In this document: positions 13,219 to 35,686 of the stretch, piece after piece
How positions within the stretch are numbered: the stretch's first letter is position 1
Layout of the letters: the number at the start of each line of letters is the position of its first letter
Origin: an uncultured SAR116 cluster alpha proteobacterium
GTDB lineage: Bacteria; Pseudomonadota; Alphaproteobacteria; Puniceispirillales; Marisalimonadaceae
Direction of reading: 5' to 3'
DNA: 64,000 nt
Assembly (NCBI GenBank): GCA_902539895.1
Contig: CACBMD010000003.1
Coordinates: 8,015 to 72,014 of the forward strand
Position numbers and translations under genes: made by a program
The notes under the pieces: generated by a model
What the model was told of the DNA's origin: nothing
The model's database searches: none
The model's input: only the letters and a program-made list of their open reading frames with translations

Positions 13219-14067
13219 TCAAAAGGGTATGTCACCTTTAATAGTTACTCGCCTACCTTTTCTTTCATGAGGGAAATAATCCCATAATGCTTTATGTATC
13301 GTACATCTATTATCCCAGAAAGCCATATCATTTTTATTCCACCTATAGCGGATCTGAAATTCTGTTTTCTCAATATGACTGAATAAGAAGTCTAATATAA
13401 ATTTGCTCTCTTGAGGCTCAAGACCTAGAATTCGTGTAGTAAAAAATTTATTAACAAATATAGCTTTTTTACCTGTTTCAGGGTGTGTCCTTATAACAGG
13501 ATGAATTGCTGAAGGATATTGTGTTTTACTTTGACCATTACTTTCAGTTTTATACCTACCACTATAAAAATGTTCTGATTCATGGGAAGCTTTAAGATCA
13601 CTTAAAAACTTTTGCATTGGATTACTTAGAGCTTCATAGGCCATATACATATTTGCAAACATAGTATCTCCACCACATTCAGGAAGAATATGAAGTTGGA
13701 GCATCGTTCCCAAAGGTGGTTCTATGTCACAAGAAACATCGGAATGGAAGTCTTCTGCTCCGTTAGCTATCTTACTATTTTTATCAGTATTTATTTCAAA
13801 AATTTGAGGATAATTTTTCATTTTAGGGGCTGCAGGATGGATATGTAAATCTCCAAAGCATCTACCCAACTTTATATGATTTTCTGGTGAAATTTCAGAT
13901 TGATTTTGAAAAAATAAAACTTGAAACTTGTGAAAAGCATCTCTTATGCCTTGAAGCTCTGCATCATTTATATCATTAGATAAATCTATATTAGTTATAA
14001 CTGCTCCTAAATTTGGTGCAAAAGGTTTAATATTTAAACTATTATTCATTACATCTAATTTGTTCAT
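13219..14067 (-). CDS. TauD/TfdA family Fe(II)/2OG dioxygenase
   Basis: FHSDVS, GGDT, HPVIRTHPETG, WDNRCTIH. Confidence 0.93.
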   Translation of the reverse strand: MNKLDVMNNSLNIKPFAPNLGAVITNIDLSNDINDAELQGIRDAFHKFQVLFFQNQSEISPENHIKLGRCFGDLHIHPAAPKMKNYPQIFEINTDKNSKIANGAEDFHSDVSCDIEPPLGTMLQLHILPECGGDTMFANMYMAYEALSNPMQKFLSDLKASHESEHFYSGRYKTESNGQSKTQYPSAIHPVIRTHPETGKKAIFVNKFFTTRILGLEPQESKFILDFLFSHIEKTEFQIRYRWNKNDMAFWDNRCTIHKALWDYFPHERKGRRVTIKGDIPF

Positions 14068-18759: not shown

Positions 18760-19629
18760 TTAATTAAATTTCTTTCTGTTGCCCTTTGACCCTATAGAAT
18801 TAAATGAAGGGAATTTTTTAACAAAAATATTGTTATCAGAAACCGATAACTCATAATCCTTATCTATATTAAGATCTATGTCTGATAATGAAATCACTAA
18901 CCATTTTTTTAATTTCAATAAATCAGTAGATGAATAGTAAGACCAGCTATTCTGCTTGCCAAAACTTTGTTCATTAGTAATTTTGATAAATCCAGGAAAT
19001 TCATTTACCATTATATCTGTTAAATAGATGATATCTTTATCTTTAAAATTATAAAATTTAAAATTATAAACTTTCGAAATATTACTATAATTTTTCTGTT
19101 CTTTTAACTTTGCATCCAGAATTCTTAAGATACTACTCCCAAGTTGGTCAGACAATAGAATAACTTTTTCACTTAATAAAAGGTTTTCACAAATATCATC
19201 ACAATCCTTAGGAAACTTGATAATTTTCCTTGGAGTAGACCAAGTAGATATATAATTTTTTGTTTGGGTATTGTATATTTCTGAAGAAATATAAATACTT
19301 GATGAGAGTTTATTGATACGCTGATAATTTAGCTTCAAAGTAATCAATAATTCAGCATCAATAATGTCACTTAAAATATCCGAATTTTCAAGGAGCTTAT
19401 CTAAATTTTTTGTGTTTTTTAAATCTAAATTTTTGATAGACCTATTGCCATCTTTAATTACAAAACCGCTTTGATTAAGAGTTGATTGTATAGATATTTT
19501 GATAGATTTGTTGTTTTTATTTTCTCCTAATACATATAATGAAATTAATGGTTTTTGCTCAGCAGAATAAGCATTCATTGATATCAATGATAAAAATATT
19601 ATTAAAAATGTAGCTTTTATTTTATTCAT
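18760..19629 (-). CDS. Exported hypothetical protein, paralog of 19631..20386
   Basis: Start moved to 19629, giving signal peptide MNKIKATFLIIFLSLISMNAYSA; DIMVNEFPGFI...YYS...KLKKWL. Confidence 0.7.
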   Translation of the reverse strand: MNKIKATFLIIFLSLISMNAYSAEQKPLISLYVLGENKNNKSIKISIQSTLNQSGFVIKDGNRSIKNLDLKNTKNLDKLLENSDILSDIIDAELLITLKLNYQRINKLSSSIYISSEIYNTQTKNYISTWSTPRKIIKFPKDCDDICENLLLSEKVILLSDQLGSSILRILDAKLKEQKNYSNISKVYNFKFYNFKDKDIIYLTDIMVNEFPGFIKITNEQSFGKQNSWSYYSSTDLLKLKKWLVISLSDIDLNIDKDYELSVSDNNIFVKKFPSFNSIGSKGNRKKFN

Positions 19630-19630
19630 C

Positions 19631-20386
19631 TTATTCACAAACATAAAAATATTTTGATTTGCTGAGTTTGTTGATATCAATTTTTGATTTATAAACCTTA
19701 ATAAAAAAATCATCTGGACTAAAACCATATTCATTGATAGTCAGACCAAGCCATTTTTTAATTTTAAATATTGTAGAGACAGTATAGTAAGCTAATTTAG
19801 TTTTACTTTGTGTATTATGACCTTCAGTTTCCATGTGAATGAAACCTGGAAACTCTTTTTCCATCACATCAATAATTTTGTTACTCTCACATGAGTTGAA
19901 ATAATTTAGAGAGATGACGATTTTCTTTTCTTTTTTATCAACAAATTGTTTGTCGCCTATTACAAATTGGATACCGTTTTTCTTCATCTGCTCTAAGCTA
20001 GAGCTCACTAACATTTTAGCAATTGTTTCTACTTCCAAAAGGTTAGATTTTTTTTCAAAAGCAAGTGATCTAGAAAAAGCATATGTTTTATTATTAACTT
20101 TATTAACAATCTTTAATGTTGGGATTAAAAGCCAATCTTGATTGATGTTTTTATTTAACAAATCGAAATAAACTAGATATTCAGACTTTTTGATATCTAA
20201 AATTGTGACATAATTTTCATTAGAATTTTTCTTAGTTATAATCTGATTAGATAAAAACTCTTTTTCTAAAAAAATTAAAAAAGTTTTATTTAATAAATTG
20301 GTTTCTTGAGAGAATGAAGGGGTAACAAATAATAACAAAAGAATTGTAAAAATATTCTTGAAAAAAAAATTCTTAATCATTTTCAT
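19631..20386 (-). CDS. Exported hypothetical protein, paralog of 18760..19629
   Basis: Signal peptide; DVMEKEFPGFI...YYT...KIKKWL. Confidence 0.7.
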   Translation of the reverse strand: MKMIKNFFFKNIFTILLLLFVTPSFSQETNLLNKTFLIFLEKEFLSNQIITKKNSNENYVTILDIKKSEYLVYFDLLNKNINQDWLLIPTLKIVNKVNNKTYAFSRSLAFEKKSNLLEVETIAKMLVSSSLEQMKKNGIQFVIGDKQFVDKKEKKIVISLNYFNSCESNKIIDVMEKEFPGFIHMETEGHNTQSKTKLAYYTVSTIFKIKKWLGLTINEYGFSPDDFFIKVYKSKIDINKLSKSKYFYVCE

Positions 20387-21768: not shown

Positions 21769-24522
21769 ATGTTAAAATCTTTTTTTTTACAGAAACGTTA
21801 CGTATTTGTTCTGTCATTTTTCTTCTTCTTTAATGCAAATGCAAATGAAGTTGAGAGAGTAAGGAATCTAGCTAATTCTGAGCCATTTGTTCTAGACAAT
21901 AAAACTGCATCTGAATTAGCACAAGATTTTATTTTAGATGCAGGAGTGTCTGAAGGTTGGAACGAAAATAAAGGGTTTTTTATTTCCATAGGAAGCAGTG
22001 TATTTGAAGAAGTAGATCCATCTACAAATCCTAACTTCTTGAACATTAGAGCAATGAAGGCTTTTGAGGCTAACATTACTGCTAAAGGCGACATCATATC
22101 ATATATTAGAACTACAATGTCAGCAGAAGACCTTATAACTATTCCTAGTTCTGGATTATCAACTGAATTTGATGAGAAAAAATATAACTTAGAATTGAAA
22201 TTACAAAGTAAAATTAGAAAATACAAAAAGGCTGCAATTAGCTACGATAAAACACTTAGTAATAATTTTAATAATATAGATGGTATATCTATTAGTGCCG
22301 TAATGGCTGGCCCACTATCTCAATTTATTTCAAAATTAAATATAAAAATAGATGCTTCCGGCAAAAAAAAAGCTAAAGATTTAAAAAAAGCTGAAGCAGA
22401 ACTTTTAGCCTTAGAGAGTGAAATAAGTTCTTTAAAACAACTAGCCAAAAAATTGCAAGGTCAGATTTCGCAAGAAAACACATCCTCTGTCAAGACATTA
22501 TCATCGATGACACTTGTAGGTGCGTATCAAGTTGCTCATTTCGAGTCATTTGTAGACGGACAATATGAAATTGCAGTAATAAAGATGTGGTCTCCTGAGC
22601 AAGAACATAGGTCTCTAGCACTTTTGAAGGGAGTTCCAATAAAGCTTGAACCAGGAAGTATGAGTGTTAAGGATTATATAAAAACAACTAATTGGGCATC
22701 AGCAATTGGTGGTAGAAAATTTATAGATGATAAAGGTGAGTTTTTTTTATTTGGTATTGGAGCAACACCAATTAAAGGCAAATCATCTGCACAAATGAGG
22801 ACAGCAAAAGGAAGAGCTGAGTTATTTGCACAAAAGGAACTTGCACTTGCACTTAAAGGTGATATTACTCTAAGTAGAGAGGCCAAAGATAAGCTTCAAG
22901 AAATTTCTAAAGCTGATGGTGCTACTGAAAATCAAGTAGCAAGCTCATTTGCAGAAACAATTTCGCAAAAGCTTGAAAACCTTCAAATTCAAGGTGCTTC
23001 AAAAAGATTTAGTGACATTGTCACCCACCCTATTACTAATCAAAAAATGTATGTGGCTGTTTATTCATTATCTGTTTCATCTACGTTAAATGCCAGAGCT
23101 ATGGAAGCATCACAATATTCTGCTACTGTTAATATGATAAATGAAAATCAAAAATCTAAAGGTGTTAAAACTGCACTTGACAAAGCAACTGATGATGCCA
23201 AAAAAGATAAAACTTCTTTTCAAAAGGGATTTAAAGAAGGTCAGGCTAAATCAAAACCACAATCTGAAAATTCAGTAAAATTATCAAGTAAAAATTCAAA
23301 CACAACACCTACAACTGAATCAAATTCCAGAAGTAAACTAACTGTAGTTTCAGTCTCAATTACTGGAGTGGGTTTTAATTCTAAAGACGCTATTAAGGAT
23401 GGTCTTGTACAAGCAATTTCTCAGGTGAATGGCCTTCAAATGTCATCTCAGACATCTTCTAGCATGGCTTCTTTTGAAACAGTTAAAGATGGAGATGAAA
23501 CTTTTGCTTCCTCTTCATCCTTTCAAGAAAAAATAAAACAAAGCACAAAAGGTGTTATCCAGAGCTGGCAGATCATATCAGTTGGGAAAAATCAATCTGG
23601 GGAAATGTTTGAAGCTAAATTGAATGTGAATGTATCAAAATTACAGCTATCTTCAGAACTTAAAAGAATGAGATTTGTCGTCTCACCAGTCAAAATCAAT
23701 AATCAAATAAAAGATAGATCCTTAGCGAAAAGTTTCGAGAAAATATTTAATCCACAACTGAGATCAATGCTTGTTAAAAGTAATAGGTTTGCCCTGTTGG
23801 TTAGAAAAAACTCAAAAGAAATTGATAAAGAGATAAATTTTATTAAAGGCTCAAATGTAAGAACTGAAGAATTAGCAAAATTAGGTAATAAAGTTGGTGC
23901 TGATTATATTATAGTTACTTCTCTACAAAATATTAAAAATAAAACTATAAAAACAAAACTGATGGGAGAGACAATATCAACCAAACAATCTGAAATAGAT
24001 TTAACTGTTAGCATTGTTGATATTGCAACATCACAAATCATCTTCTCTGATAATATGTCACTATCACAAGCCGGAGGAAGTTTATCTAAGTTTTCTAAAT
24101 TAATTGCTGAGAGATTAGCAAGAAAAATAACTGACACCTTTTTTCCTGCTAAACTTATAGCCTTCAAGAACAATAAATTGACTGTTGACCAAGGTAATAG
24201 CTTTTTTAATAAAAAAAATACTTATAATATCATTAAGTTAGGACCAAGGATCATAGATCAAACATTAAACCAATTTTCTGGAAGGGTTGAGAATATTGTT
24301 GGTAAAGCGCAATTTCTAGAAGGTTCATCTAAGCAATCCATTTTAAAATTAATTAGTTTAGAAGATAAAGAAACTTCATTAGATGCACAACAAGGTATAA
24401 TTATAAGACCAATATTTGAAAAACTCCCTTCTGCTTCTGACATTGCTAAAGAAAAAATTAAAAGAATTAAAGCAAAAAACAAAAAAATGATGAAAAAAAT
24501 TGATAAAGATAAAGACTGGTAA
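21769..24522 (+). CDS. Large exported multidomain protein: N-half paralogous to 24943..26535, C-half FlgT-N/LPP20-like plus CsgG/HfaB-like
   Basis: Signal peptide; TGVGFNSKDAIKDGLVQAISQVNG; LVKSNRFALLVR...LAKLGNKVGADYII; ends DKDW. Confidence 0.7.
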   Translation: MLKSFFLQKRYVFVLSFFFFFNANANEVERVRNLANSEPFVLDNKTASELAQDFILDAGVSEGWNENKGFFISIGSSVFEEVDPSTNPNFLNIRAMKAFEANITAKGDIISYIRTTMSAEDLITIPSSGLSTEFDEKKYNLELKLQSKIRKYKKAAISYDKTLSNNFNNIDGISISAVMAGPLSQFISKLNIKIDASGKKKAKDLKKAEAELLALESEISSLKQLAKKLQGQISQENTSSVKTLSSMTLVGAYQVAHFESFVDGQYEIAVIKMWSPEQEHRSLALLKGVPIKLEPGSMSVKDYIKTTNWASAIGGRKFIDDKGEFFLFGIGATPIKGKSSAQMRTAKGRAELFAQKELALALKGDITLSREAKDKLQEISKADGATENQVASSFAETISQKLENLQIQGASKRFSDIVTHPITNQKMYVAVYSLSVSSTLNARAMEASQYSATVNMINENQKSKGVKTALDKATDDAKKDKTSFQKGFKEGQAKSKPQSENSVKLSSKNSNTTPTTESNSRSKLTVVSVSITGVGFNSKDAIKDGLVQAISQVNGLQMSSQTSSSMASFETVKDGDETFASSSSFQEKIKQSTKGVIQSWQIISVGKNQSGEMFEAKLNVNVSKLQLSSELKRMRFVVSPVKINNQIKDRSLAKSFEKIFNPQLRSMLVKSNRFALLVRKNSKEIDKEINFIKGSNVRTEELAKLGNKVGADYIIVTSLQNIKNKTIKTKLMGETISTKQSEIDLTVSIVDIATSQIIFSDNMSLSQAGGSLSKFSKLIAERLARKITDTFFPAKLIAFKNNKLTVDQGNSFFNKKNTYNIIKLGPRIIDQTLNQFSGRVENIVGKAQFLEGSSKQSILKLISLEDKETSLDAQQGIIIRPIFEKLPSASDIAKEKIKRIKAKNKKMMKKIDKDKDW

Positions 24523-24942: not shown

Positions 24943-26535
24943 ATGAAAATTTTAATTAAAATAATTTTAATTTTAATAATTTCAATATCAAGCCACTCTT
25001 ACGCAGTTGCATCGCAAACAACTAATGAAGTAATTGATAAGACACAAAAATCCGAAGCACCTCTTTATAGCGAAAGCGCATCATCAGAAGACTTAGCACA
25101 AGAGTTTTTAAACGAAGTTGGCCTAACTGAGGGTGACAATGATGGCTTGTTTGTGGCTGTGGGAACAGCAGTTTTGCCTGAGCCCGATCCTGCAAGTAAT
25201 CCCGACTTCCTAACAATGAGAAGAATTAAAGCTTCTGAGGCATCTCTTGAAGCTAAAAGACAATTTATAGAGTTTATAAGAACCACTATGTCAGCAGAGG
25301 ATGTTGTAACCATGCCAGAGTCACCCTTCTCTACTGAATTTGATAACAAAATGAAGGCTACACAGAATAAAATTAATAAGGCATTCAGAAACTATAAACT
25401 TGCTCTTAGGAAAGCAAATAAAGCGGAGGCTGCTAAGTTCAATGGAGTTGATTTTTCAGTGTTAGCTAAGGAAGGAATTACTGCGACTATTAAAAGAATA
25501 AACCCAGAATTTGACGCAAGCAAAGTTGAGAAAAAACTAGTAGATGATCTTGCAAAAGCAAAAGCAGATTTAGAAGCAACTGAGACTGATCTAAATAATT
25601 TAAAAAATGAATTAGAAACCCTTAGAGGATCTCTGCAACAAGAAAATGTGAGTTCTATTGAAACATTTTCAAAAATGAATGTGGTGGGTCTCGTTCCTAT
25701 AGCAAGCTTTGAATCTTGGGATGGAGAACAATATGCTACAACAATTGTTAGTATATGGACTACAAAAGAAGAAGAAAGAGCAAGAATGCTCTATTCTGGT
25801 CAAGACGTGGCTTATGACCCAGGTTCTTTATCTGTGAAAGATTTTATAAATTCTACAGATTGGTCTACAGCACAAGGTGTAAGGAAATTTTTTGATGACA
25901 AAGGTAACTTCTGGTTAATATCAATTGGTTCCAGTCCCATTAAAGGTAAATCCTCTAAAGCTACAAGAACAGCAAAAGGACAAGCACAATTGAGCGCTCA
26001 AAAGCAAATAGCATTTGTATTATTTTCAGAAGCTTCTTCTAGAAGAAGTGCTAAAGAAAAATTACAAGAAGTTACTACCGGGAATGTAGGTGAAACAGAA
26101 AATCAGTCAGTAACATCTTTTGCTGAAACTATTTCTCAAAAAGTTGAAGACCTTGATATTCAAGGTATGTCTCAACTAAAAGGAAAAAAATATACACACC
26201 CTATCTCAGGCCAGGAAATGTTTGTATCGATTTATGGGATTTCATCTAAAGCAGTTAGACAAGCTCAATTAATGGAAGCATCTCAAGCAAGAATCACTCA
26301 AGATATGATCAGAGAAAATCAAAGATCTAAGGGAGTAAAAGCAGGCTTTGATAAAGCAATTGATGATGCAAAAAAAGATAAATCTTCTTTTCAAAAAGGA
26401 TTTAAAGAAGGTCAAGCCAAAGCAAAAACACAATCCAATGCTTCTAAAAAACCATCAAGCTCAAATACAACATCTGGTGGCAATTCAAAAGGTGGCTTTA
26501 AAGGAGCAGGAACTGGCTCTAGTGCATTTAAATAA
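24943..26535 (+). CDS. Exported coiled-coil protein, paralog of the N-half of 21769..24522
   Basis: Signal peptide; shared IRTTMSAED, GxRKFxDDKGxF, SFAETISQK, MEASQ blocks; Gly/Ser-rich tail. Confidence 0.75.
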   Translation: MKILIKIILILIISISSHSYAVASQTTNEVIDKTQKSEAPLYSESASSEDLAQEFLNEVGLTEGDNDGLFVAVGTAVLPEPDPASNPDFLTMRRIKASEASLEAKRQFIEFIRTTMSAEDVVTMPESPFSTEFDNKMKATQNKINKAFRNYKLALRKANKAEAAKFNGVDFSVLAKEGITATIKRINPEFDASKVEKKLVDDLAKAKADLEATETDLNNLKNELETLRGSLQQENVSSIETFSKMNVVGLVPIASFESWDGEQYATTIVSIWTTKEEERARMLYSGQDVAYDPGSLSVKDFINSTDWSTAQGVRKFFDDKGNFWLISIGSSPIKGKSSKATRTAKGQAQLSAQKQIAFVLFSEASSRRSAKEKLQEVTTGNVGETENQSVTSFAETISQKVEDLDIQGMSQLKGKKYTHPISGQEMFVSIYGISSKAVRQAQLMEASQARITQDMIRENQRSKGVKAGFDKAIDDAKKDKSSFQKGFKEGQAKAKTQSNASKKPSSSNTTSGGNSKGGFKGAGTGSSAFK

Positions 26536-33874: not shown

Positions 33875-34789
33875 ATGAATAAATTTTTTTATTTTTTATT
33901 ATTAATTTTTTTATGTTTTCAAATGAGTATTGCTCAAGCTTATGAAGGTAATAAAAAAATTGAGAGCTTTTCAAAATCCAAAAATTTTTTAAAGAATATC
34001 CACCAAGAAAATCCAGTAACTTTCTATTGGCAATGTACATATAATTTTAATTAACCAAATTGGGAAAGCTGGTTTTCGTCCTAGAAAAGATAAAAAAGGG
34101 CTACTAGAATTGAATGGGAACATATTTTACCAGCATCACATTTTGGTATAAAATATGATACCTGGAAAAATAAACACCCTGATTGTATTAACACTAAAGG
34201 GAAAAAGTTTATAGGTAGAAAATGTACTGAAAAGGTTCATAAATTATATAGATTTATGCAAGCTGACCTATATAACCTTCAACCAGCTATTGGTTAAGTT
34301 AATGGATTAAGGAGTAATTACCAAATTGGAGAGATCGACGGAGAAGTTAGAGAATTTGGTAAATGTGATATAGAGATAAAAAATAAAAAAGTTGAACCTG
34401 CTCCTAAAATACGTGGTGATATAGCAAGAACATATTTATATATGGAATATGCTTATCCAAAATATGTAATTTTTAACCAAAATTTAAAAATTCTTATTAA
34501 AAAATGGGATGAAACTGACCCAGTCGATGAATGGGAATGCTTTAGAGCAGAGAAAATTAAAAAAATTCAAAGTAATGTAAATAAAATTTTAAATAAAAGA
34601 TGCCAAAATCAAAATAAGTTAAATGTTAGTAATTCAAATCTTAATGAAATGCAAAATACAACAATAATTTATAAAAATAATATTCAGTCAGACGATTTAA
34701 TAAAACAAAATAATGTTATTAAACAGAATTCTTATATTAGTAATAAAGGGTCATTTAAAGGCAAAGGATCTGATGATGCGTTAAAATAA
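33875..34789 (+). pseudogene. endA: Endonuclease I (EndA/Dns/Vvn family) pseudogene
   Basis: Signal peptide, SFSKSK, RIEWEHILPASHFG, ADLYNLQPAIG*VNGLRSNY, RGDIARTYLYM, DPVDEWEC; stops at 34052 and 34295 plus compensating frameshifts at ~34070 and ~34095. Confidence 0.88.
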
Positions 34790-34870: not shown

Positions 34871-35686
34871 TCACCATTGATTTGCAAATTCACTTGAGTA
34901 TTGAAACTTTTTTATTGGAGTACCTTCACCTCTAGGAATTTCTGCAATTGGGTTATGTTTGAATGCATCAACACCTCTGGCTAGCTGTGTTTCAAAATGT
35001 GGCCAGATTGACAAATCTGCTTTCACGTTCACAGGCGCAAATCTCATAGTTATTCCACAGCGCCTTCTGTCAGAATGATTTGCTTCAGAACCATGAAGCA
35101 AACCATCATCATGTAGTGAAATCTCACCTGCCTTTAAATTCAATGAAATTATGTCATCTTTCTTGATTTGATCATAAGAGACCTCTTGATCAAGCACTAA
35201 ATTACTAGCCTTGTTAGTATGGTGTTTAAACATTCCTTGTTTGTGACTACCTTTTACAACCTTCATAGCAGCATTTTCTTCATCGGTATCGTATAATGCC
35301 AACCAAACAGTTACTGATTTAGCTGGCGATAATGGCCAATATTGAGCATCTTGATGCCAAGGGACTACTGAACCATCTTTTGGTTCTTTTAAAAAAAATT
35401 GGCCTCCCCATTGAAAAAAATTTGGACCCAATAGATCTTCTACATAATCAAGAATTGCTGGTGTTCTGCATAAATTATGAAATTTTAAACTTGCTTTGTG
35501 CCACATATTTGTTTGATTGATGTCAATATTACTGCTTAATCGAGAACTTAAAGAAACAAATAAATCGTTTAAATCACCCTTTGCTTCTTCATGAAAAACT
35601 GGTAAACCAGTCAAATACCCGTCTTTTAAATATTTGTCCTTCTCTTTGTTTGTTAGTCTTCTTACTTCGTTAGAAATCTTAAACAT
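34871..35686 (-). CDS. Phytanoyl-CoA dioxygenase (PhyH) family
   Basis: WHQDAQYWP, HGSEAN.S.RRR. Confidence 0.9.
   Translation of the reverse strand: MFKISNEVRRLTNKEKDKYLKDGYLTGLPVFHEEAKGDLNDLFVSLSSRLSSNIDINQTNMWHKASLKFHNLCRTPAILDYVEDLLGPNFFQWGGQFFLKEPKDGSVVPWHQDAQYWPLSPAKSVTVWLALYDTDEENAAMKVVKGSHKQGMFKHHTNKASNLVLDQEVSYDQIKKDDIISLNLKAGEISLHDDGLLHGSEANHSDRRRCGITMRFAPVNVKADLSIWPHFETQLARGVDAFKHNPIAEIPRGEGTPIKKFQYSSEFANQW

Follow-up and report, generated by a model that had tools for sequence, protein, structure and literature searches.

Recruitment of partners to a scaffold by a tethered C-terminal peptide is a well-known arrangement in the cytoplasm, of which few cases have been described for the bacterial periplasm. 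The general principle, i.e., that a terminal peptide on a flexible linker brings a client to a scaffold, is familiar from SSB, in which a low-complexity, disordered linker joins an oligomerising folded core to an acidic tip (..DFDDDIPF-COOH) that docks on its own core as well as on partners, and nucleases are known among the substrates of the tripartite, sortase-type C-terminal signals. In the periplasm of Campylobacter, rings of the SHS2 protein FlgP arise as a β-sheet is continued from one subunit to the next, Lpp20 and FlgT share this fold, and FlgP and FlgT form periplasmic rings by such sheet extension (PMC12222027). The present work concerns a stretch of 64,000 nucleotides, here called “the window”, from an uncultured SAR116 cluster alphaproteobacterium (assembly GCA_902539895.1, contig CACBMD010000003.1, positions 8,015 to 72,014), where two unrelated exported proteins, an endonuclease I (EndA) and a large scaffold protein of 530 amino acids (aa), end in closely similar C-terminal tails behind unrelated linkers.

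Positions 34742–34789 of the window read NKGSFKGKGSDDALK-stop, comprising 15 codons that precede the stop at 34787–34789, and the tail proper (KGSFKGKGSDDALK plus stop; 34745–34789, + strand) follows the pattern [KI][GS]x[FY][KTN]GxG[STN]xx[AS][LF]K, which is found in six sequence variants. The gene that carries it (33875–34789, + strand), a pseudogene in this genome, comprises a Sec signal peptide, the nuclease domain, a linker and the tail, with the Pfam Endonuclease_1 match falling into two pieces. At the PF04231 cut-off of 25 bits the last open piece, of 163 aa, lies above the threshold with 58.8 bits, and the middle piece scores 19.8 bits; the match ends at residue 95 of the last piece and is followed by about 53 residues rich in N, Q and K, then by the 14-residue tail. 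This linker (34583–34744, + strand) was delimited by the end of the Pfam domain and by the alignment of orthologues, among which its length and sequence vary, and agrees with the N/Q-rich linker of some 50 aa that the first-pass annotation had described. That annotation had also claimed that the tail matches the end of the 530-aa protein, which terminates in SKGGFKGAGTGSSAFK-stop, and the match was upheld by translation and by scans for its uniqueness.

Among the 5,735 stop-to-stop open reading frames (ORFs) of at least 50 aa in the 1.45-Mb assembly (31% G+C), the motif KGxFKG occurs only twice, both times 10–11 residues ahead of a stop, with the two occurrences lying 8 kb apart. Looser patterns, e.g., [FYW].G.G.{3,7}[FLWYIM].?$, applied to ORFs of at least 80 aa, matched the same two ORFs only, which is also the outcome of the search of the genome’s C-termini that had been proposed at first pass: EndA and the 530-aa protein are the only matches. 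When 1,462 ORFs were compared all against all by their 20 C-terminal residues, this pair ranked within the top 42 of 1,067,991 pairs, with the top-scoring pairs listed being mostly such as resemble whole-length paralogues. Chance and low complexity as sources of the likeness were ruled out by these pattern scans and this ranking, and the end of EndA resembles that of the 530-aa protein far beyond chance. Nucleotide agreement between the two tails lies mainly in the first two positions of the codons, and the flanking DNA shows no relationship, which argues that there was no recent duplication of the tail DNA, and this source of the likeness was ruled out as well.

Of the genus genomes searched, about one in three has an orthologue of the 530-aa protein. 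The tails of these orthologues are identical at 94–98% identity of the whole proteins and read KKGGFKGSGTSSGAFK at 83%, TGAFKGSGTGSSAFK at 61% and KKGGFKGGGTTSGAFK at 58% identity, giving a genus form of KGGFKGxGTxSxAFK, while the S/T-rich linker ahead of the tail varies freely. The intact EndA orthologues of sister genomes (291–306 aa) end in KGSFKGKGSNDALK (G014, G013, G010), KGSFKGKGSIDAFK (G008), KGVFTGKGTSNSFK (G006) or IGAYKGAGTNHALK (G028), and G025 has kept IGSFNGKGNHDALK behind a frameshift; these ends follow the genus-specific form of the scaffold tail, with a penultimate [FL] and then K, so that all copies of the two tails in the genus close with [FL]K. Conservation of the nuclease domain is high, whereas the linker, 38–57 residues long, cannot be aligned across the deeper branches. 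In a DNA-level search of 45 genus genomes for KGx[FY][KT]GxG, the pattern lay near a C-terminus only in the EndA and 530-aa families, apart from one spurious frame of 24 residues; the remaining matches were internal to unrelated proteins. The tail is therefore kept in both families while the linkers diverge, and the doubt raised at first pass, that it might not be conserved among homologues of either protein, was dispelled. The suggestion that the gene at 18760–19734 is a looser third member did not hold, since its ending, GSKGNxKK[FY]N, is a different motif, conserved among its own orthologues down to 50% identity.

These comparisons bear on the possibility that the tail has no function on EndA, i.e., that the 3′ end of the scaffold gene was acquired by local duplication or recombination and has since been a decaying passenger. 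The EndA gene is dead in this genome and in four others is cut short or put out of frame ahead of the tail, and the island at whose edge it lies does not need it, all of which would suit a passenger. However, the EndA tail pattern survives where the 530-aa orthologues are only 58–61% identical to the protein of the window and where the adjoining linker has been wholly rewritten in length and sequence, the mark of purifying selection acting on the final 14 residues of EndA, and six genomes have kept both gene and tail intact. A mere passenger is thus judged very improbable.

The tail is not peculiar to the genus. Relatives of the 530-aa protein, sought exhaustively with HMMER, fall into 404 clusters (at 50% identity; E ≤ 0.001), mostly of 540–590 residues, and the family, which has neither a name nor a known function, extends over Endozoicomonas, Desulfobaculum, a Deltaproteobacteria metagenome-assembled genome (in which its entries are named “hypothetical protein” only), Francisella and abundant marine alphaproteobacteria. 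Searches with Pfam and NCBIfam did not recognise it, Pfam DUF6844 matched 3 of 60 members weakly, and no published description of the motif or of the function of the family was found. Among 400 further genomes, sampled at the level of the phylum, it was present in two only, those listed being of the same class; the family is large, unnamed and sparsely distributed. Nearly all members carry a disordered linker and then ..[ST]G-x-[FY]-x-G, 5–7 residues, F and zero to two further residues before the C-terminus, as typified by the ends ..SGTFSGDTNISDDF, ..GGVFGGDVDVSDDF, ..SGVYGGAGSDDFDW and ..VTGAGSDIDAFGW. In the 124 full-length cluster representatives, Gly prevails at positions −13 and −9, F or Y at −11 and Asp at −2 to −4, and the last residue is F, W or Y in 108, leading to a family-wide motif of the form ..SG-x-[FY]-x-G..D[VI]xDDF or ..AFGW-COOH. 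Such patterned positions, and a final aromatic residue in 108 of the 124, indicate that the peptide is ancestral in the scaffold family and has been under selection there. The tails of the window protein and of EndA both fit the genus variant of this motif, and the genus form ..KGGFKGAGTGSSAFK is nearest to the GAG..AF-x-W type, with the final aromatic residue absent and Lys at x.

The closing Lys invites another explanation, in which it would be linked to meso-diaminopimelate by an L,D-transpeptidase, fixing both scaffold and nuclease covalently to the peptidoglycan. A C-terminal Lys was found to be necessary and sufficient for such attachment, and the Lpp box tolerates many substitutions, even on a reporter (PMC12274547). 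All genus copies of both tails end in [FL]K, a YkuD-type L,D-transpeptidase is encoded in the genome, and tethering to the wall would be well served by a long flexible linker. The linkages of C-terminal Lys in that study (PMC12274547) are, however, gamma-proteobacterial, the 14 conserved residues far exceed what an Lpp box needs, and the family motif ends in F or W, with K closing only 2 of the 124 representatives (the one besides the genus form being ..ADHEFK). By these counts the terminal Lys is a local departure from an older motif ending in F or W, and a wall anchor is accordingly regarded as quite improbable.

The 530-aa protein itself (24943–26535, + strand), an exported member of this large unnamed family with a predicted SHS2/LPP20-like fold and coiled-coil inserts, was modelled with AlphaFold2 from a 60-sequence alignment as β/α modules with long helical hairpins, at a mean predicted local distance difference test (pLDDT) of 80.8. 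The Pfam LPP20 and FlgT_N models gave no match to it. Foldseek matched the model to an uncharacterised Francisella protein, FTT_1539c (4QVR; E 5.4e-7), which is the only relative with a solved structure and is also matched by the family profile at E 1.5e-11, and to a 106-residue chain of the Campylobacter flagellar periplasmic scaffold with a probability of 0.95. Behind the core lies an S/T/G/K-rich linker of about residues 488–515 (26404–26487, + strand), which is predicted to be disordered (pLDDT <50 for residues 488–514) and diverges among orthologues, followed by the tail (KGGFKGAGTGSSAFK plus stop; 26488–26535, + strand), which is conserved down to 58% identity as the local form of the family-wide C-terminal motif. 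In the model the tail is ordered again, with a strand at 517–520 (GGFK), a helical turn at 526–529 (SSAF) and a mean pLDDT of 84 over residues 521–530, and because a strand assigned by DSSP needs a bonding partner, the tail presumably lies on the folded core. Both EndA and the 530-aa protein have Sec signal peptides and hence share a compartment.

The favoured reading, given a little less than an even chance, is that the shared tail is a tethered docking peptide, which the nuclease borrows in order to be moored on a periplasmic assembly. The disordered linker would end in a peptide with two anchors that binds a site on the SHS2-type core, capping its own subunit or else reaching a neighbouring subunit or a paralogue that lacks the tail. 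The periplasmic endonuclease I that borders the island would then have gained a linker and the genus-specific peptide, the likeliest effect being that the DNase is moored on the scaffold assembly. The paralogue, a protein of 917 aa (21769–24522, + strand), has the same core over about residues 36–512 at 47% identity, further domains and neither linker nor tail, ending in DKDW (..KKIDKDKDW), and might be the acceptor, with a docking site left free. A protein of 927 aa (P0194; L082:13649–16432), from an unrelated metagenomic lineage, matches the core over query residues 65–438 and lies beside a tailed member, so the pairing of a short tailed with a long tail-less form recurs. When the core of the 530-aa protein (residues 37–485, 60-row alignment) was co-folded with the EndA linker and tail (45 residues, represented by only 5 rows), the score was 0.02, which bears on binding in neither direction, and an AlphaFold2 model of an intact EndA orthologue, built from only six sequences, had a mean pLDDT of 41.6, too low to judge from it whether the tail is free. 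In addition, K or R tends to occupy positions 59, 69, 295–296, 323 and 353 of the 530-aa protein in those family members whose tails are acidic, whereas V, L, S, L, F and Q stand there in the genus, with its basic or neutral tail; this covariation of charge in the core may be the trace of a docking site, with phylogeny as a confounder.

Elsewhere, the tailed protein belongs to a core operon together with a lipoprotein of ~200 aa, a CsgG/LpoB-like lipoprotein of ~350 aa, a protein of 380–450 aa and, often, a FlgT_N-like protein of ~465 aa. Another borrower of the tail, independent of EndA, was met in one of these settings: in the metagenomic loci L082 and L089 the family member ends in ..RSQDGVFSGDSDVDDDF and a small lipoprotein encoded directly downstream of it in ..KSQPGVFMNETVDNVEDNF, the pair of tails being ..SQPGVFMNETVDNVEDNF on the lipoprotein beside ..SQDGVFSGDSDVDDDF on the family member. 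No homologues of this small lipoprotein were detectable.

Such operons raise the alternative that the tail is an address tag read by some other component, be it a secretion or sorting signal for a CsgG-like outer-membrane channel or for vesicles, a degron or PDZ ligand recognised by a periplasmic protease, or a peptide for another island protein. The pairing of a CsgG/LpoB-like lipoprotein and a FlgT_N-like protein with the tailed protein would accord with this, as would the Lon-like protease module within the same deletable island, and the family-wide [DE]-x-[FW]-COOH resembles a class III PDZ ligand. On the other hand, no PDZ or CsgG Pfam domain was detectable in the proteins of this island, a terminal Lys would fit hydrophobic PDZ pockets badly, and a large, folded, coiled-coil scaffold and a disulphide-bonded endonuclease I would make poor substrates for a narrow CsgG-type pore. 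AlphaFold2, moreover, places the tail within the 530-aa protein itself. Taken together, these points make an address tag read elsewhere rather unlikely. The first-pass annotation had offered a sorting or docking signal, and its two halves fared differently: tethering fits both the ordered tail of the 530-aa protein and the tailed lipoprotein of L082 and L089, while a sorting role found no support in a tail that, unlike the sortase-type signals, has neither a transmembrane segment nor a basic cluster and belongs to proteins already provided with Sec signals.

A broader form of the docking peptide reading can be put forward with low probability only, namely that the tail is the portable address tag of a widespread, undescribed periplasmic ring or scaffold, composed of the SHS2/LPP20-like protein, the CsgG/LpoB-like lipoprotein and the FlgT_N-like protein, at which enzymes could be stationed through a linker and a local tag, in this genus a non-specific DNase. 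If that were true, a DNase posted at the scaffold could, e.g., degrade DNA that comes in across this region of the envelope.

The components of the distant operons have C-terminal signatures of their own. The FlgT_N-like proteins (L080:11776–13185, L081:11694–13091, L083:5236–6645, L084:4996–6399 and L097:8286–9677) share ..R/L-GLKAxN....[LIV]xF[ST]F-COOH, an end that looks like the β-signal of outer-membrane proteins, and the CsgG/LpoB-like lipoproteins (L080:7552–8577, L081:7669–8688, L082:8844–9899, L083:1205–2263, L084:1092–2150 and L097:4227–5288) share the C-terminus ..GMPxPPEW[ED]KNYK[DN].

The first-pass annotation had spoken of an EndA nuclease, the gene for which is not intact in this genome. 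The frame opened by the ATG at 33875 runs into a TAA at 34052, and the correct reading requires two frame changes near 34050–34093. Three-frame translation of the disrupted stretch (34052–34093, + strand) revealed a deletion of 2 nucleotides after 34069, a deletion of 1 nucleotide in an A-run after 34091 and three in-frame stops, the EndA stretch INQIGKAGFRPRKDKK being legible in the next frame only; the frame is then regained and is closed again by a TAA nonsense codon (34295–34297, + strand) in place of the Glu of the conserved GEVNG. A fourth lesion, at 34030 (+ strand), is a G where the relatives read C, giving Trp for the first Cys of FYCxC. Sister genomes have FYCQC..NKPNWESCGFRPRKDKKRA..GEVNG in a single frame, and an uninterrupted frame with EWEH..GEVNG..RSN and the Cys pattern, absent from the window, was found in G014, G013, G010, G008, G006 and G028. 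Logan contigs from three independent marine metagenome studies have the additional TG after 34069 and A after 34091, a G at 34295 (GAA) and a C at 34030 (Cys), indicating that the lesions are peculiar to this assembly or strain.

All four lesions fall inside 270 bases, with the other genes of the 64-kb window being open, and EndA is read as a strain-specific pseudogene rather than as the product of random assembly error, an error being possible for the two indels. An active DNase in this genome is not supported, the gene being broken; with the nuclease gene dead, only the tail of the scaffold protein can be functional here, and the tail noted on EndA is a relic on a dead gene. Another genome of the genus, G003 (L040, G003:C14), has a second, canonical endonuclease I (NGDRSN) with a different C-terminal extension, ..KKVGVTGQQLKGVKGRSNTSSLSNF, and in its assembly, which is 62% complete, no member of the 530-aa family was found.

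EndA forms the right-hand edge of a variable island of about 20 kb (14090–34789), which was delimited by a deletion in G005 and by the adjacency of TauD and EndA in G019. The island, which acts as a single unit, sits between TauD (13219–14067) and PhyH (34871–35686) and runs from the Lon-like protease module to EndA. In G005 (L090) a single deletion reaches from within the 14090 gene to within EndA, and in G019 (L092) TauD adjoins EndA with no island in between; no member of the 530-aa family was found in the latter assembly (95% complete), which keeps the nuclease domain and has two stops ahead of the tail. Wherever both share a contig, the tailed EndA lies about 8 kb from the 530-aa gene, in the same place. 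No tailed EndA was found anywhere but at the edge of the island with the 530-aa gene, which answers the question, raised at first pass, of whether it occurs only with the locus: it always marks the island edge, and in G019, the one genome with a full-length EndA and no island in this place, the tail is cut off by two stops.

The twelve tailed EndA genes comprise six intact copies, three with a nonsense codon in the linker, one with a frameshift there (G025) and two that are destroyed, one by point lesions (G000) and the other by the island deletion (G005). The three genes with linker nonsense (G024, G033 and G019, of which the last two share one stop) have intact domains. In all three (L029, L038 and L037, respectively) the tail codons downstream of the stops are intact and in frame; the stops could be recent truncations or else be bypassed, e.g., by read-through.

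The island also encodes an SLT transglycosylase and a run of exported proteins that could not be annotated; apart from the SLT domain, searches of the island proteins with Pfam, NCBIfam and PADLOC returned nothing, and there are no flagellar genes in the island. A “Rosetta-stone” case for docking of the tail on the downstream 503-aa protein was considered and dropped after negative BLASTP results: the 503-aa protein has no similarity to the C-terminal half of the 917-aa paralogue, and the FlgT_N-like protein of Endozoicomonas is similar to neither of the two.

Several of these observations weigh against a docking peptide that moors the nuclease. Docking of the tail on the core of the 530-aa protein is read from the DSSP strand assignment and the pLDDT of a model, and the spacing of the two hydrophobic anchors differs, being 9 in the EndA tail and 10 in the 530-aa tail. 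Among the eleven distant loci fetched, where L082 and L089 represent one lineage, the others scanned have no neighbour with the tail, and borrowing of the tail by neighbours is the exception, not the rule. G016 (L091; 99% complete) has the island and no EndA, which makes the nuclease an optional accessory, and G033 has lost the tail although it has kept the island. The frequency of such losses (G024, G033, G019, G025, G000 and G005) implies that any benefit is conditional, and since the EndA cases are all kin within one genus, their co-occurrence with the island counts as one event. Of the earlier proposal that the DNase is a cargo or accessory of the locus, the optional accessory is what G016 leaves standing, and the reading as a secreted cargo found no support.

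A conserved terminal motif that is also carried by two unrelated neighbours of the scaffold family offers a concrete handle on the system, since the 15-residue peptide could be used to fish for partners, to tag proteins for localisation or to search for further clients. The locus is, besides, a clear example of a streamlined marine genome that gains, and then repeatedly loses, an accessory enzyme.

The comparison with known systems starts with the nuclease, which, in its intact orthologues, is like EndA, Vvn and Dns (PF04231) in its domain, its signal peptide, its EWEH and RSN catalytic motifs and its Cys pattern, and unlike them in the additional linker of 38–57 residues, in the 14-residue tail and in NGDRSN, which here reads NG[LI]RSN. 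As in GlyGly-CTERM, PEP-CTERM and LPXTG, a C-terminal signature is common to unrelated exported proteins of one genome; whereas sortase-type signals combine a motif, a hydrophobic helix and a basic cluster, and are cleaved, 14 hydrophilic residues are followed here directly by the stop. The aromatic or hydrophobic C-terminus of an outer-membrane-protein β-signal or of a PDZ ligand is not seen in the genus tails, which end in Lys, and in the wider family, where 108 of the 124 ends are F, W or Y, these are yet preceded by acidic and not by the alternating hydrophobic residues of a β-signal. Substrates of curli-type CsgG are unfolded and are targeted by their N-termini; the signal here would be C-terminal and both proteins consist of folded domains, with no Pfam CsgG match in the island and CsgG/LpoB-like lipoproteins in the operons elsewhere. 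The Lpp box of Braun’s lipoprotein and of OutB of Dickeya dadantii (PMC12274547) has in common with the tail a C-terminal Lys, an exported envelope protein, transferability and a periplasmic tether; it is, however, only ~4–6 residues long and has little consensus, in contrast to the 14–15 patterned residues here, which in most members end in F or W. The β/α modules of the 530-aa protein resemble the SHS2 fold of FlgP, FlgT and Lpp20, and the short strand of the tail could act by sheet extension as well, though FlgP uses an internal hairpin for this and not a C-terminal tail. SSB is a cytoplasmic, DNA-bound protein of another fold and sequence, while the present proteins belong to the periplasm, the genus tail is basic or neutral and its binding is a prediction. 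It is in the mode of action that the tail would be closest to the SSB tip, with a core, a linker and a short terminal peptide that combines aromatic anchors with a free carboxylate, and the family-wide ..D[VI]xDDF-COOH is similar to that tip in composition.

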